This document shows positions 47,295 through 53,018 of a DNA stretch of 64,000 nucleotides, piece after piece. The position numbers and the translations under genes were made by a program. Position 1 is the first letter of the stretch. Every line of letters begins with the position of its first letter. Location: assembly GCF_003018115.1 (NCBI RefSeq), contig NZ_CP027457.1. One strand, 5' to 3'. This DNA comes from Escherichia coli. GTDB taxonomy: Bacteria > Pseudomonadota > Gammaproteobacteria > Enterobacterales > Enterobacteriaceae. Under the pieces are notes generated by a model. The model was not told the origin of the DNA. It saw nothing but the letters and a program-made list of their open reading frames with translations, and ran no database searches.

Positions 47295-48728
47295 CTAACC
47301 CAGTTGCCAGAGTGCCCCATGTTGCACCACAGCCACTCCGTGGGAGGCATAAAGCGACAGTTCCCGTTCTTCTGGCTGCGGATAGATTCGACTACTCATC
47401 ACCGCTTCCCCGTCGTTAATAAATACTTCCACGGATGATGTATCGATAAATATCCTTAGGGCGAGCGTGTCACGCTGCGGGAGGGGAATACTACGGTAGC
47501 CGTCTAAATTCTCGTGTGGGTAATACCGCCACAAAACAAGTCGCTCAGATTGGTTATCAATATACAGCCGCATTCCAGTGCCGAGCTGTAATCCGTAATG
47601 TTCGGCATCACTGTTCTTCAGCGCCCACTGCAACTGAATCTCAACTGCTTGCGCGTTTTCCTGCAAAACATATTTATTGCTGATTGTGCGGGGAGAGATA
47701 GATTGATGCTGCTGGCGTAACGACTCAGCTTCGTGTACCGGGCGTTGTAGGAGTTTGCCATTGCTCTCTGATAGCTCGCGCGCCAGCGTCATGCAGCCTG
47801 CCCAGCCTTCACGTTTTGAGGGCATTGGCGATTCCCACATATCCATCCAGCCGATAACAATACGCCGACCATCCTTCGCTACAAAGCTTTGTGGTGCATA
47901 AAAGTCATGCCCGTTATCAAGTTCAGTAAAATGCCCGGATTGTGCAAAAAGTCGTCCTGGCGACCACATTCCGGGTATTACGCCACTTTGAAAGCGATTT
48001 CGGTAACTGTATCCCTCGGCATTCATTCCCTGCGGGGAAAACATCAGATAATGCTGATCGCCAAGGCTGAAAAAGTCCGGACATTCCCACATATAGCTTT
48101 CACCCGCATCAGCGTGGGCCAGTACGCGATCGAAAGTCCATTCACGTAATGAACTGCCGCGATAAAGCAGGATCTGCCCCGTGTTGCCTTGGTCTTTCGC
48201 CCCGACTACCATCCACCATGAGTCGGCTTCACGCCACACTTTAGGATCGCGGAAGTGCATGATTCCTTCTGGTGGAGTGAGGATCACACCCTGTTTCTCG
48301 AAATGAATACCATCCCGACTGGTAGCCAGACATTGTACTTCGCGAATTGCATCGTCATTACCTGCACCATCGAGCCAGACGTGTCCGGTGTAGATAAGTG
48401 AGAGGACACCATTGTCATCGACAGCACTACCTGAAAAACACCCATCTTTGTCATTATCGTCTCCTGGCGCTAGCGCAATAGGCTCATGCTGCCAGTGGAT
48501 CATATCGTCGCTGGTGGCATGTCCCCAGTGCATTGGCCCCCAGTGTTCGCTCATTGGGTGATGCTGATAAAACGCGTGATAACGATCGTTAAACCAGATC
48601 AGGCCGTTTGGATCGTTCATCCACCCGGCAGGAGGCGCGAGGTGAAAATGGGGATAGAAAGTGTTACCCCGGTGCTCATGAAGTTTTGCTAGTGCGTTTT
48701 GCGCCGCATGCAATCGAGATTGCGTCAT
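47295..48728 (-). CDS. cscA: sucrose-6-phosphate hydrolase / invertase (GH32)
   Basis: GH32 motifs NDPNG and RDP; start taken at MTQSRL (AGGA 9 nt upstream) rather than the ATG at 48737. Confidence 0.9.
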   Translation of the reverse strand: MTQSRLHAAQNALAKLHEHRGNTFYPHFHLAPPAGWMNDPNGLIWFNDRYHAFYQHHPMSEHWGPMHWGHATSDDMIHWQHEPIALAPGDDNDKDGCFSGSAVDDNGVLSLIYTGHVWLDGAGNDDAIREVQCLATSRDGIHFEKQGVILTPPEGIMHFRDPKVWREADSWWMVVGAKDQGNTGQILLYRGSSLREWTFDRVLAHADAGESYMWECPDFFSLGDQHYLMFSPQGMNAEGYSYRNRFQSGVIPGMWSPGRLFAQSGHFTELDNGHDFYAPQSFVAKDGRRIVIGWMDMWESPMPSKREGWAGCMTLARELSESNGKLLQRPVHEAESLRQQHQSISPRTISNKYVLQENAQAVEIQLQWALKNSDAEHYGLQLGTGMRLYIDNQSERLVLWRYYPHENLDGYRSIPLPQRDTLALRIFIDTSSVEVFINDGEAVMSSRIYPQPEERELSLYASHGVAVVQHGALWQLG

Positions 48729-48762
48729 TTTAATCATCCTGGTTAAGCAAATTTGGTGAATT

Positions 48763-48774
48763 GTTAACGTTAAC
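48763..48774. promoter_or_regulatory. candidate CscR operator (12-bp palindrome), copy 1
   Basis: gttaacgttaac in the cscA-cscK divergent intergenic region. Confidence 0.4.
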
Positions 48775-48826
48775 TTTTATAAAAATAAAGTCCCTTACTT
48801 TCATAAATGCGATGAATATCACAAAT

Positions 48827-48838
48827 GTTAACGTTAAC
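48827..48838. promoter_or_regulatory. candidate CscR operator (12-bp palindrome), copy 2
   Basis: Identical gttaacgttaac 64 bp from copy 1. Confidence 0.4.
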
Positions 48839-48943
48839 TATGACATTTTGTGATCGAATATGCATGTTTTAGTAAATCCATGACGATTTTGCGAAAAAGA
48901 GGTTTATCACTATGCGTAAGTCAGATGAATTTAAGGGAAAAAA

Positions 48944-49858
48944 ATGTCAGCCAAAGTATGGGTTTTAGGGGATGCGGTAGTAGATCTCTTGCCAGAATCA
49001 GACGGGCGCCTACTGCCTTGTCCTGGCGGCGCGCCAGCTAACGTTGCGGTGGGAATCGCCAGATTAGGCGGAATAAGTGGGTTTATAGGTCGGGTCGGTG
49101 ATGATCCTTTTGGTGCGTTAATGCAAAGAACTCTGCTAACTGAGGGAGTCGATATCACGTATCTGAAGCAAGATGAATGGCACCGGACATCCACGGTGCT
49201 TGTCGATCTGAACGATCAAGGGGAACGTTCATTTACGTTTATGGTTCGCCCCAGTGCCGATCTTTTTTTAGAGACGACAGACTTGCCCTGCTGGCGACAT
49301 GGCGAATGGTTACATCTCTGTTCAATTGCGTTGTCTGCCGAGCCTTCGCGTACCAGCGCATTTACTGCGATGACGGCGATCCGGCATGCCGGAGGTTTTG
49401 TCAGCTTCGATCCCAATATTCGTGAAGATCTATGGCAAGACGAGCATTTGCTCCGCTTGTGTTTGCGGCAGGCGCTACAACTGGCGGATGTCGTCAAACT
49501 CTCGGAAGAAGAATGGCGACTAATCAGTGGAAAAACACAGAACGATCGGGATATATGCGCCCTGGCAAAAGAGTATGAGATCGCCATGCTGTTGGTGACT
49601 AAAGGTGCAGAAGGGGTGGTGGTCTGTTATCGAGGACAAGTTCACCATTTTGCTGGAATGTCTGTGAATTGTGTCGATAGCACGGGGGCGGGAGATGCGT
49701 TCGTTGCCGGGTTACTCACAGGTCTGTCCTCTACGGGATTATCTACAGATGAGAGAGAAATGCGACGAATTATCGATCTCGCTCAACGTTGCGGAGCGCT
49801 TGCAGTAACGGCGAAAGGGGCAATGACAGCGCTGCCATGTCGACAAGAACTGGAATAG
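48944..49858 (+). CDS. cscK: fructokinase (PfkB/ribokinase family)
   Basis: 304 aa; PfkB signature GAGDAF near the C-terminus. Confidence 0.9.
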   Translation: MSAKVWVLGDAVVDLLPESDGRLLPCPGGAPANVAVGIARLGGISGFIGRVGDDPFGALMQRTLLTEGVDITYLKQDEWHRTSTVLVDLNDQGERSFTFMVRPSADLFLETTDLPCWRHGEWLHLCSIALSAEPSRTSAFTAMTAIRHAGGFVSFDPNIREDLWQDEHLLRLCLRQALQLADVVKLSEEEWRLISGKTQNDRDICALAKEYEIAMLLVTKGAEGVVVCYRGQVHHFAGMSVNCVDSTGAGDAFVAGLLTGLSSTGLSTDEREMRRIIDLAQRCGALAVTAKGAMTALPCRQELE

Positions 49859-49929
49859 TGAGAAGTAAACGGCGAAGTCGCTCTTATCTCTAAATAGGAC
49901 GTGAATTTTTTAACGACAGGCAGGTAATT

Positions 49930-51177
49930 ATGGCACTGAATATCCCATTCAGAAATGCGTACTATCGTTTTGCATCCAGTTACTCATTTCTCTTTTTTAT
50001 TTCCTGGTCGCTGTGGTGGTCGTTATACGCTATTTGGCTGAAAGGACATCTAGGGTTGACAGGGACGGAATTAGGTACACTTTATTCGGTCAACCAGTTT
50101 ACCAGCATTCTATTTATGATGTTCTACGGCATCGTTCAGGATAAACTCGGTCTGAAGAAACCACTCATCTGGTGTATGAGTTTCATCCTGGTCTTGACCG
50201 GACCGTTTATGATTTACGTTTATGAACCGTTACTGCAAAGCAATTTTTCTGTAGGTCTAATTCTGGGGGCGCTCTTTTTTGGCTTGGGGTATCTGGCGGG
50301 ATGCGGTTTGCTTGACAGCTTCACCGAAAAAATGGCGCGAAATTTTCATTTCGAATATGGAACAGCGCGCGCCTGGGGATCTTTTGGCTATGCTATTGGC
50401 GCGTTCTTTGCCGGCATATTTTTTAGTATCAATCCCCATATCAACTTCTGGTTGGTCTCGCTATTTGGCGCTGTATTTATGATGATCAACATGCGTTTTA
50501 AAGATAAGGATCACCAGTGCGTAGCGGCGGATGCGGGAGGGGTAAAAAAAGAGGATTTTATCGCAGTTTTCAAGGATCGAAACTTCTGGGTTTTCGTCAT
50601 ATTTATTGTGGGGACGTGGTCTTTCTATAACATTTTTGATCAACAACTTTTTCCTGTCTTTTATGCAGGTTTATTCGAATCACACGATGTAGGAACGCGC
50701 CTGTATGGTTATCTCAACTCATTCCAGGTGGTACTCGAAGCAGTGTGCATGGCGATTATTCCTTTCTTTGTGAATCGGGTAGGGCCAAAAAATGCATTAC
50801 TTATCGGTGTTGTGATTATGGCGTTGCGTATCCTTTCCTGCGCGCTGTTCGTTAACCCCTGGATTATTTCATTAGTGAAGCTGTTACATGCCATTGAGGT
50901 TCCACTTTGTGTCATATCCGTCTTCAAATACAGCGTGGCAAACTTTGATAAGCGCCTGTCGTCGACGATCTTTCTGATTGGTTTTCAAATTGCCAGTTCG
51001 CTTGGGATTGTGCTGCTTTCAACGCCGACTGGGATACTCTTTGACCACGCAGGCTACCAGACAGTTTTCTTCGCAATTTCGGGTATTGTCTGCCTGATGT
51101 TGCTATTTGGCATTTTCTTCCTGAGTAAAAAACGCGAGCAAATAGTTATGGAAACGCCTGTACCTTCAGCAATATAG
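49930..51177 (+). CDS. cscB: sucrose:H+ symporter (MFS, oligosaccharide:H+ symporter family)
   Basis: 415 aa, 12-TM LacY-like protein. Confidence 0.92.
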   Translation: MALNIPFRNAYYRFASSYSFLFFISWSLWWSLYAIWLKGHLGLTGTELGTLYSVNQFTSILFMMFYGIVQDKLGLKKPLIWCMSFILVLTGPFMIYVYEPLLQSNFSVGLILGALFFGLGYLAGCGLLDSFTEKMARNFHFEYGTARAWGSFGYAIGAFFAGIFFSINPHINFWLVSLFGAVFMMINMRFKDKDHQCVAADAGGVKKEDFIAVFKDRNFWVFVIFIVGTWSFYNIFDQQLFPVFYAGLFESHDVGTRLYGYLNSFQVVLEAVCMAIIPFFVNRVGPKNALLIGVVIMALRILSCALFVNPWIISLVKLLHAIEVPLCVISVFKYSVANFDKRLSSTIFLIGFQIASSLGIVLLSTPTGILFDHAGYQTVFFAISGIVCLMLLFGIFFLSKKREQIVMETPVPSAI

Positions 51178-51296
51178 ACGTAAACTTTTTCCGGTTGTTG
51201 TCGATATCTCCATATCCCTCAACCGGAAAATAATAATAGTAAAATGCTTAGCCCTGGTGACTGCTCCCCGCCCTGTCGGGCGAGGCTTCCCACTTC

Positions 51297-52466
51297 TTAA
51301 GCTGCAACCGTCTGTGTGACGGATTTACGCTGGCCTCCATGGGCAGAAACGACGAGTCCCGCCGCTTGTAATTCCAGTATGCCCTTGCGTTTGATGTTGA
51401 GCGCCGCGTTGATATCGCGGTCATGTTCAACTCCACACTCTGGACACTGCCAGATGCGCTTATGTAATGGCATCTCCGACATTTTGTGACCGCAGCAGTG
51501 GCAGATTTTCGAACTGGCGAACCATTGATCCAGTTTCACCAGATGCACACCTTTCTCTGTTGCTTTGTATTCCAGTTTTGTGATGAATCCAGACCATCCA
51601 GCATCGCCTATCGCACGAGCCAGATGGTGATTTTTCATCATATTTGCCGTTTTCAATGTCTCGACAATTACCGCTTGGTTTTCGTCAACAATTGCGCGAG
51701 ATAACTTGTGCTGGAAATCGGCACGGGCACTGGCTACCCGTTCGTGAACGGCTGCAAGTTGTATTCTGGCTTTGCGCCTGTTTGCGCTCCCTTTTTTCTT
51801 ACGGGACAGTGCTTTCTGCTTCCGGCGAAGGTTGCGACTTGCATTGATTAGGTGGCGGGGACTGGCAATTTTATTGCCGTCCGATTTGATGACAAAATGC
51901 GCCAGCCCCATATCCAGCCCTGTCACATTTGATATCAGTGCGGGCTTTGCCGGCGCTTCCATCCCGTCGTCACAGAGTAACGACGCGTAGTATTTCCCGG
52001 TTGCGCTGCGGCTCAACGTGATACTTTTCAGCATTCCCGTAATTTCACGATGTAAACGCGCTTCAATCGGCAAGATTTTCGGTATTTTTATCGCACCATC
52101 AAGGACTTTTATGCCAACACAATGATAGCTCGATTGTCTGCCGTGTTTACTTTTAAAGGTAGGTTTACCTGCTTTCAGTTTCGGATTGAAAAAGTTAGAA
52201 AAAGCCACGTCGAGGTTAATTACCGCCTGCTGCAACGCAATAGAATCATATTCTTTAAGCCATCCATACCGGCGGGATTTCTTCGCCACTGCAAGCAGTG
52301 GTTTGAGGTCTTTACGCGGGTTTAAATTTACGCGGTGCCGCTGGTAAGAATGTTTCTTGATATGCAGAGCTTTGTTGTACGCAAAACGCACTGCACCGAA
52401 CTGGGCGTTGATAAATTCAGCCTGTTCTGGTGTCGGGTAGATGCGTACTTTTGTTGCTCTTAACAT
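51297..52466 (-). CDS. tnpB: TnpB (OrfB) RuvC-like RNA-guided endonuclease of the IS200/IS605 family
   Basis: 389 aa; N-terminal HTH-like region, RuvC-I (GLDMGL), RuvC-II (VIVETLK), zinc ribbon CHCCGH...CPECG, RuvC-III (HDRDINAALNI). Confidence 0.9.
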   Translation of the reverse strand: MLRATKVRIYPTPEQAEFINAQFGAVRFAYNKALHIKKHSYQRHRVNLNPRKDLKPLLAVAKKSRRYGWLKEYDSIALQQAVINLDVAFSNFFNPKLKAGKPTFKSKHGRQSSYHCVGIKVLDGAIKIPKILPIEARLHREITGMLKSITLSRSATGKYYASLLCDDGMEAPAKPALISNVTGLDMGLAHFVIKSDGNKIASPRHLINASRNLRRKQKALSRKKKGSANRRKARIQLAAVHERVASARADFQHKLSRAIVDENQAVIVETLKTANMMKNHHLARAIGDAGWSGFITKLEYKATEKGVHLVKLDQWFASSKICHCCGHKMSEMPLHKRIWQCPECGVEHDRDINAALNIKRKGILELQAAGLVVSAHGGQRKSVTQTVAA

Positions 52467-52522
52467 AATCAGCGCTCATTGATATAATTCTTTTATTTTA
52501 ACGCTTTAGGTGAATATATCAA

Positions 52523-52948
52523 TTGAGTAATCATGATGATTTACTGGCGGGATTTCTCCGCAAACGACACAGTGTCAGTAAGCTGGTTGTGCACCTTATT
52601 TTTACGACAAAGTATCGACGCAAACTATTCGACAGTCAGATGATCGCTCAGTTGCGTGAGGCTTTTGGCTCCGCTGCGGCAAAGCTTGAATGCGAAATTA
52701 TTGAGATGGACGGGGAGCCAGACCATGTACACCTGCTGGTTGCCTACCCGCCAAAACTGGCGGTCAGTGTGATGGTCAATAATTTAAAATCGGTATCATC
52801 ACGTTTGCTACGCCAGCAGAACGCGCATTTACGTATGCAGAGTAAAACGGGGCTTTTGTGGTCGAGATCGTACTTTGTCTGTAGCACCGGAGGGGCAACG
52901 ATTGAAACGCTCAGAGCCTACGTTCAGAGTCAGTCAACACCTGATTGA
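52523..52948 (+). CDS. tnpA: IS200-type Y1 (HuH) transposase TnpA
   Basis: 141 aa; HuH motif HVHLLV, conserved TTKYRR, catalytic Tyr region (SRSYFV). Confidence 0.88.
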   Translation: MSNHDDLLAGFLRKRHSVSKLVVHLIFTTKYRRKLFDSQMIAQLREAFGSAAAKLECEIIEMDGEPDHVHLLVAYPPKLAVSVMVNNLKSVSSRLLRQQNAHLRMQSKTGLLWSRSYFVCSTGGATIETLRAYVQSQSTPD

Positions 52949-53018
52949 TCTTTAAAGCCCTGCGGGCTTTTCGCCTTATATCCCCGCCCGCATTGGGCGA
53001 GGGTTTACGGCGTTTTTC

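Follow-up and report, generated by a model that had tools for sequence, protein, structure and literature searches.

A complete ISEc46 element with a predicted omega-RNA and chimeric flanks beside the sucrose genes of Escherichia coli

Background

The closest described systems to the element reported here are IS608 of Helicobacter pylori, ISDra2 of Deinococcus radiodurans and ISEc46 itself. IS608 is the reference for "peel and paste" transposition by TnpA, in which the 4 nt lying 5' of each hairpin recognise the corresponding cleavage tetranucleotide (PMC3201880). For ISDra2, TnpB and the omega-RNA have been solved by cryo-EM, and the RNA has a 116-nt scaffold (PMC10097598). ISEc46, so named in ISfinder, appears in a published survey of elements that carry TnpB, where it is listed for E. 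coli with 196 copies in 191 of 2467 genomes and lengths of 1766-1775 bp (PMC9956272, Table S1); its catalogue entry gives a TnpB of 389 aa, left cleavage at TTAG and right cleavage at TCAC, within the "IS605c" subgroup (PMC9956272). A literature search on the function of ISEc46 TnpB yielded resistome surveys and a single catalogue paper, and no biochemical test.

Here we describe an ISEc46 copy in a 64-kb stretch of E. coli chromosome, called the window below. With high confidence, we read the locus as an intact, autonomous ISEc46 carrying TnpB and an omega-RNA, with chimeric flanks that most likely arose by recombination between two copies.

Results

Identity and distribution of the element

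In this part of the window the genes run in the order dsdA, cscR, cscA, cscK and cscB (the csc genes for sucrose), the element, an intS stub, argW, yfdC and mlaA. This agrees with the first-pass annotation, made from the sequence of the window, which had set the element between a catabolic island and a tRNA-linked integrase stub; the csc genes lie on the one side, and the integrase on the other is intS, truncated and linked to argW. The stub is labelled by PGAP as an incomplete "Arm DNA-binding domain-containing protein."

51257-53019, minus strand: complete IS200/IS605-family element (ISEc46), 1763 bp, in the order left end (LE), tnpA (reversed), tnpB, right end (RE); ends from uninterrupted alleles; the top (transposing) strand is the window minus strand
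53020-53300, minus strand: intS N-terminal stub (~93 of 385 codons), truncated at the left end of the IS, by comparison with K-12 intS
53462-53536, minus strand: argW, tRNA-Arg CCU

Seven complete E. coli genomes, some of them O169:H41, were 100% identical to a 1951-bp query spanning the locus, and ISEc46 is present once in each. In these genomes the NCBI (PGAP) annotation reads "RNA-guided endonuclease InsQ/TnpB family protein" and "tnpA: IS200/IS605-like element ISEc46 family transposase." Approximately 440 further full copies, annotated as ISEc46, are 99.5% identical to the window element; for copies at other loci the figure is 99.5-99.6%. Counting as full-length any copy that covers at least 80% of the 1951-bp query, we found such copies at various loci in 448 of 5426 complete E. 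coli genomes (~8%); across the 5426 genomes, the element occupies at most six places per genome, and 384 of the places are on plasmids. Other E. coli insertion sites include oppD, an IclR-type regulator gene beside yfaU, the ygbA-mutS interval and plasmids. We compared the copies at the first three of these sites with ours: each is 1763 bp long and differs from the window copy at 7-9 positions, and each has TTAG 5' of the left end, unrelated DNA past TCAC and zero duplication.

The element thus shows the features of the IS200/IS605 family, namely a Y1 HUH TnpA, subterminal hairpins, insertion at a fixed tetranucleotide without duplication and a position that varies between genomes. The family assignment made at first pass is borne out by the family matches of TnpA and TnpB and by the hairpin ends. 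Whether the element was a named IS or a new family member had been left as a question, and the answer is the former: it is the catalogued ISEc46, given 99.5-100% identity to copies that PGAP names ISEc46 and the published features of the element, with which the 389-aa TnpB and the TTAG and TCAC sites derived independently here agree.

TnpB retains the residues of an RNA-guided nuclease

51297-52466, minus strand: tnpB, 389 aa; RuvC residues D185/E269/D351; zinc ribbon C322/C325/C341/C344

TnpB matches the Pfam families HTH_OrfB_IS605, OrfB_IS605 and Cas12f1-like_TNB, and scores 340.9 bits against NCBIfam guided_TnpB (cutoff 100). Residues 4-380 align with ISDra2 TnpB (8EXA/8H1J) at E = 1.3e-74. 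In this alignment the motifs GLD185MG, IVE269TL and HDRD351 of TnpB fall opposite the catalytic motifs of ISDra2, namely GVDVG, GTEHL and the second D of HDRD (ISDra2 residue 361), and the zinc ribbon is formed by CHCC (322-325) and CPEC (341-344). The acidic triad and the CxxC...CxxC ribbon noted at first pass are therefore both present, with no catalytic substitution and no break in the ribbon seen in the alignment. A search limited to one genome per species returned 80 TnpB relatives with 63-99% amino-acid identity, almost all with open reading frames of equal length, in Photorhabdus, Serratia, Rahnella, Idiomarina, Halomonas-group bacteria, Vibrio, Shewanella and others. On these comparisons, tnpB is predicted to encode a full-length RNA-guided RuvC nuclease.

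TldR-like derivatives, which are RNA-guided repressors, are known from Enterobacteria (PMC10705468), and the nuclease activity of ISEc46 TnpB is itself a prediction; one might therefore ask whether this TnpB is a decayed or domesticated, nuclease-dead protein of that kind. We regard this as extremely improbable, as D185, E269, D351 and both cysteine pairs are intact, tnpB lies within a complete IS that has tnpA and both ends, and the position of the element varies between strains. The reading of TnpB as a nuclease is kept in what follows.

TnpA and the intergenic region

52523-52948, plus strand: tnpA, 141 aa, TTG start; Y1 HUH transposase with H68-V-H70 and Y133; divergent from tnpB
52460-52522, no strand assigned: tnpB-tnpA intergenic region, 56 bp, with two divergent promoter-like sites

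TnpA scores 141.3 bits against NCBIfam transpos_IS200 (cutoff 55) and aligns with the solved structures of IS608 TnpA (residues 10-132) and ISDra2 TnpA (residues 14-137). The ISEc46 Y1 protein has been catalogued with a length of 102 aa and as "N-terminally truncated" (PMC9956272). In the window copy, the alignment with the IS608 and ISDra2 structures begins at residue 15 of the 141-aa protein, opposite their residues 10-14, and the start codon at 52523 (TTG) is TTG, GTG or ATG at the equal position in relatives from many genera. Because this conserved TTG/GTG start yields 141 aa, the 102-aa entry appears to be an artefact of open reading frame calling, probably an ATG-only call. The intergenic region holds a promoter-like site on the plus strand (TTAACA-17-TATAAT, 11/12) and another on the minus strand (TTGATA-16-TAAAAT, 10/12), each identified by its consensus match alone.

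Ends, target site and TAM

51257-51289, minus strand: right end; GAAG at 51286-51289, hairpin CCTCGCCC-GACA-GGGCGGGG at 51266-51285, TCAC at 51257-51260
52982-53019, minus strand: left end; 17 nt CGAAAAACGCCGTAAAC ending in AAAC (53003-53006), then hairpin CCTCGCCC-AATGC-GGGCGGGG at 52982-53002
53020-53023, minus strand: TTAG, target and left cleavage tetranucleotide and predicted TAM, in the flank; from junctions of relatives and of E. coli copies

Read on the minus strand, the two ends carry imperfect hairpins with identical arms, CCTCGCCC and GGGCGGGG, which include one T.G pair. Among 70 relatives the right terminus AGTCAC is almost invariant, with unrelated flanks beyond it. At the left end, TTAG lies directly 5' of the element in 55 of 55 distinct junctions of relatives; TTAG was sought in a window of five positions, so that about 2% would be expected by chance. 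Position -5 before the left end is weakly biased in the same 55 junctions (T 27, C 13, A 10, G 5). All four E. coli copies likewise have TTAG at the left junction, and their right flanks are unrelated and without a repeated TTAG. The element is thus specific for TTAG, and TTAG is the predicted TAM of TnpB.

A predicted, covarying omega-RNA scaffold and its guide

51257-51381, minus strand: predicted omega-RNA scaffold, with a covarying core at 51257-51367 (111 nt); from covariance model and pair counts
51241-51256, minus strand: predicted guide, 16 nt, CAGGGCTAAGCATTTT, in the cscB-side flank directly 3' of the right end

The 3'-terminal 185 nt were aligned for 66 distinct elements, and structure was assessed with RNAalifold and an explicit count of pairs. 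The consensus fold has six helices and 30 pairs, with standard pairing in 97.9% of cells across the 66 relatives, and 18 of the 30 pairs are changed on both sides in one or more relatives (212 cells). None of 500 column-shuffled controls reached any of the observed measures, and sliding the pairing partner by 1-3 columns lowered pairing to 32-55%. We further built a covariance model, R1, from 60 relatives, leaving out the window copy and two near-identical relatives; its sole match in the 64-kb window is 51257-51381 on the minus strand (133.5 bits, E = 1e-33). An Rfam scan of 48000-56000 at E ≤ 1 returned the argW tRNA and a chance plastid match only, with nothing at the right end, and no model in Rfam 15 appears to cover the ISEc46 omega-RNA.

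Counting -1 as 51257, the last base of the element, the helices compare with those of ISDra2 as follows, by published coordinates and not by alignment:

Stem 1: ISEc46 -111 to -105 with -97 to -91; ISDra2 -116 to -111 with -91 to -86
Stem 2: ISEc46 -87 to -83 with -37 to -33; ISDra2 -84 to -81 with -35 to -32
Stem 3a: ISEc46 -79 to -73 with -49 to -44; ISDra2 -77 to -71 with -48 to -42
Stem 3b: ISEc46 inner hairpin; ISDra2 present
Stem 4: ISEc46 -29 to -22 with -17 to -10, tetraloop -21 to -18; ISDra2 tetraloop -20 to -17
Pseudoknot: ISEc46 stem-1 loop GAC (-102 to -100) and GUC (-5 to -3), pairable; ISDra2 -105 to -103 with -5 to -3

The pseudoknot pairs G-102:C-3, A-101:U-4, C-100:G-5 and U-99:A-6 can form in 97.3% of cells and show zero covariation, because both sides are almost invariant. 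RNAalifold had proposed a different long-range GAC/GUC pairing (columns 22-24 with 203-205), which we dropped for the ISDra2-type pseudoknot with the stem-1 loop; neither covaries. A single-sequence fold of 51241-51450 (z = -2.6) gave a partly different fold, and the comparative structure was used instead. In the window copy, a synonymous substitution at 51303, not found in the other E. coli copies compared, replaces one C-G pair of stem 3a by a C.A mismatch.

Could the conserved 3' end instead be a DNA hairpin bound by TnpA, together with coding constraint, with no RNA gene and a TnpB that lacks a local guide? The terminal hairpin at 51266-51285 doubles, by analogy with IS608, as a TnpA binding site, the left end has the same arms, and the scaffold is partly inside coding sequence, its 5' part overlapping only the last ~23 codons of tnpB. 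However, stems 1, 2, 3a and 3b, all upstream of that hairpin, covary, with 15 of 23 pairs changed on both sides. The covarying pairs include long-range ones that join the coding region to the non-coding tail. TnpA requires none of the four stems, and each position in them agrees with the architecture seen by cryo-EM for the omega-RNA of ISDra2. We therefore give an explanation by hairpin and coding constraint very little credence. The predicted omega-RNA is well supported by comparative analysis; its placement at first pass, on the minus strand from the 3' end of tnpB through the right end, coincides with the covarying scaffold, and of the covariance-model searches that had been proposed there, the purpose-built R1 detects it and Rfam does not.

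The predicted guide lies immediately 3' of the right end (51256-51241), in the cscB-side flank, as had been anticipated; its length of 16 nt is borrowed from ISDra2. CAGGGCTAAGCATTTT occurs once in the window, where it is preceded by TCAC instead of TTAG. In IS-free, csc-positive strains it is matched at 16 of 16 positions by the site that follows ATTAG (O157:H7 strain 7636), and the TnpB-RNA complex would therefore be expected to cut that allele or a vacated site.

The two flanks come from different ancestral sites

We located both junctions by comparison with uninterrupted alleles, written here on the minus strand with a slash at the breakpoint. At the right, IS-free csc-positive strains (O157:H7 strain 7636 and strain 6EVA) read ...GATTATTAG/CAGGGCTAAGC and the window reads ...AGCAGTCAC/CAGGGCTAAGC; the shared CAGGGCTAAGC breakpoint places the right end at 51257. 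At the left, the K-12 intS sequence is ...CAATTCCTTTAG/TGCGATTTAC and that of the window ...CCTTTAG/CGAAAAACGCC, which places the left end at 53019. The element had been delimited at first pass as 51255-53018: its presence there stands, and its exact ends are corrected to 51257 and 53019. The ancestral sites are CCTTTAG/TGCG in K-12 intS and ATTAG/CAGGGC in the csc-positive strains, and other strains have island DNA between these points, with a DUF4942 remnant, a recombinase and further genes. Judged from these junctions, the copy is chimeric, with a left junction from an insertion in intS and a right junction from an insertion beside cscB. Guide and TAM had been expected at first pass to be inferable from the junctions; the two do not add up to a single original target, since the junctions derive from two ancestral sites.

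A joined-flank search of 5426 complete genomes found no uninterrupted TTTAG-CAGGGC joint; although the query was 5 nt short at the joint, a genuine empty site would have come out on top all the same. The nearest match, in strain 6EVA, was 89% covered in two pieces with 276 extra bases and has a different arrangement. The joint being absent, a TTTAG-CAGGGC "original target" never existed in any genome found. Neither precursor junction (the IS in intS, or the IS at cscB with a DUF4942-side flank) was found in the 5426 genomes.

The most likely and most economical account of the mixed flanks is recombination between two copies. ISEc46 would have inserted twice at TTAG in the same orientation, in intS and beside cscB, and homologous recombination between the copies would then have deleted the island between them, with the loss of one copy. 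A possible but clearly less likely history is that an earlier deletion joined cscB-side DNA to intS at CTAA/TTAG and that ISEc46 inserted there later. The breakpoint has CTAA in each of the two ancestral sequences (GCCCTG/CTAATAATC and ATCGCA/CTAAAGG on the plus strand), which makes a 4-nt microhomology deletion possible; moreover, no two-copy precursor is known among the 5426 genomes, and the seven identical genomes hold one copy each. Such a history nonetheless needs two coincidences at one TTAG, and it calls for an uninterrupted joint that is present in 0 of the 5426 genomes, with the 89%, two-piece match and its 276 extra bases as the nearest approach. It is also conceivable, if improbable and speculative, that the enzymes of the element, not RecA recombination between two copies, made the chimeric junction: as one route, TnpA might cut on the left at the distal TTAG, the one in intS, and so excise island and IS together, after which reinsertion or homing might bring the IS to the newly formed TTTAG-CAGGGC joint. 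If true, members of the IS200/IS605 family could remove tRNA-linked genomic islands with precision at TTAG. Recombination between two copies is the account we retain.

Discussion

As a discovery the element has little value, ISEc46 being catalogued, present in ~8% of complete E. coli genomes and already annotated by NCBI as encoding an RNA-guided endonuclease. The locus is a worked example of how the TAM-side and guide-side flanks of an IS200/IS605 copy can differ in origin. The by-products of the analysis are an omega-RNA model for the ISEc46 lineage backed by covariation, a 4-nt TTAG TAM backed by 55 junctions, and a conserved non-ATG start of tnpA, hence an untruncated protein. If it is active, a TnpB that is native to E. 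coli and has a short TAM might hold some interest as a tool for editing.

By homology with IS608 and ISDra2, we propose that on the minus strand TnpA would bind the imperfect hairpin near each end, the two having identical arms, cut after the flanking TTAG at the left and after TCAC at the right, and move the element as a single-stranded circle, with insertion 3' of TTAG and no duplication. A scaffold RNA of ~111-125 nt, from the 3' end of tnpB and the right end, would run on into the flank and so gain a 16-nt guide, here CAGGGCTAAGCATTTT. The TnpB-RNA complex may then cut a TTAG-flanked copy of CAGGGCTAAGCATTTT, either at the vacated donor site or in an IS-free csc-positive allele, and recombinational repair would restore the element (homing or retention). 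Of this scheme, we infer the transcription and processing of the RNA, its binding by TnpB and the cleavage of DNA.

Among known systems, ISEc46 as catalogued and the window copy are alike in length, gene content, the 389-aa TnpB, TTAG at the left and TCAC at the right; nothing substantial sets the window copy apart from other ISEc46 copies beyond 7-9 positions and flanks of mixed origin. ISDra2 shares the TnpB fold and catalytic residues (E = 1.3e-74), and its omega-RNA has the same helices 1, 2, 3a, 3b and 4 at nearly equal distances from the 3' end. It differs in its TAM, TTGAT (5 nt) as against TTAG (4 nt), and in TnpB length (408 aa versus 389 aa in ISEc46, for which TnpB activity is a prediction). 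Furthermore, tnpA and tnpB are co-oriented in ISDra2, whereas tnpA is divergent from tnpB in ISEc46.

The ends compare with those of IS608 as follows:

IS608 left: cleavage TTAC, guide tetranucleotide AAAG, 19 nt to hairpin
ISEc46 left: cleavage TTAG, guide tetranucleotide AAAC, 17 nt to hairpin
IS608 right: cleavage TCAA, 10 nt to hairpin
ISEc46 right: cleavage TCAC, guide tetranucleotide GAAG, 9 nt to hairpin

Like ISEc46, IS608 has a Y1 HUH TnpA and identical imperfect hairpins near both ends. In both elements the left hairpin is preceded, at a distance of ~17-19 nt, by a cleavage site in the flank, the right hairpin is followed after 9-10 nt by its cleavage site, and each cleavage tetranucleotide is matched to the four nucleotides 5' of its hairpin. 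The two differ in target (TTAG in ISEc46, TTAC in IS608) and in right site (TCAC versus TCAA), and the left guide tetranucleotide shifts in step with the target, from AAAG in IS608 to AAAC in ISEc46.

Flanks of the ISEc46 copy and variation of the csc-argW interval

Comparison of both ISEc46 junctions (51256/51257 and 53019/53020) with loci from other genomes (L003 4380-4780 and L005 1440-1540) showed that the flanks of this copy derive from separate ancestral sites: the left flank from a TTTAG within intS, and the right flank from a site following ATTAG next to cscB. This implies that the entire island between cscB and argW-intS was lost in the window's lineage. Across 5426 genomes, we found neither a precursor of the mixed-flank junction nor an empty joint of the two flanks.

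In strain 6EVA (L002 1900-2260 and 2248-2453), approximately 360 bp of DUF4942-remnant DNA lies downstream of cscB, followed by a second, frameshifted integrase stub (95% identity to the window's intS stub) and, beyond it, by yeeU/yeeT/yeeS island genes. Judged from this layout, strains carry several distinct rearrangements of the csc-argW interval.

A 422-aa ORF (55774-57042, minus strand) flanked by mlaA and fadL, labeled only as a hypothetical protein in RefSeq, has a high content of Asn, Asp, and Ile, contains internal repeats such as "NQEPIK" segments, and looks foreign by composition.

Variation within ISEc46 and its relatives

At position 51303, this copy carries a synonymous T (plus strand), in contrast to the C found in each of three further E. 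coli copies used for comparison; the T converts a C-G pair in stem 3a, a helix of the predicted omega-RNA, to a C.A mismatch.

Many relatives lack tnpA, with the left end just 72-161 nt upstream of tnpB as compared to about 530-556 nt in full elements. These tnpB-only elements are presumably non-autonomous derivatives:

Photorhabdus: L018, L024-L026, L030, L033, L034, L036, L070, L082
Marine Gammaproteobacteria: L048, L054-L056, L067, L072, L073, L077

Photorhabdus thracensis and P. akhurstii harbor many tnpB-only copies, which occupy distinct TTAG sites.

The tnpA start (52523) is a conserved non-ATG codon among relatives (Enterobacterales have TTG, most of the remaining relatives GTG, and one ATG), suggesting that translation of the transposase is deliberately weak. 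Directly past the tnpA stop, within the left end, a stem-loop (AAAGCCC-TGC-GGGCTTT, then TTCG; 52950-52975, plus strand) could serve as a tnpA terminator, although its short T run kept it from being called in the terminator scan. A published catalogue (PMC9956272) scores the ISEc46 Y1 protein as truncated at 102 aa, apparently as a result of taking the first ATG.
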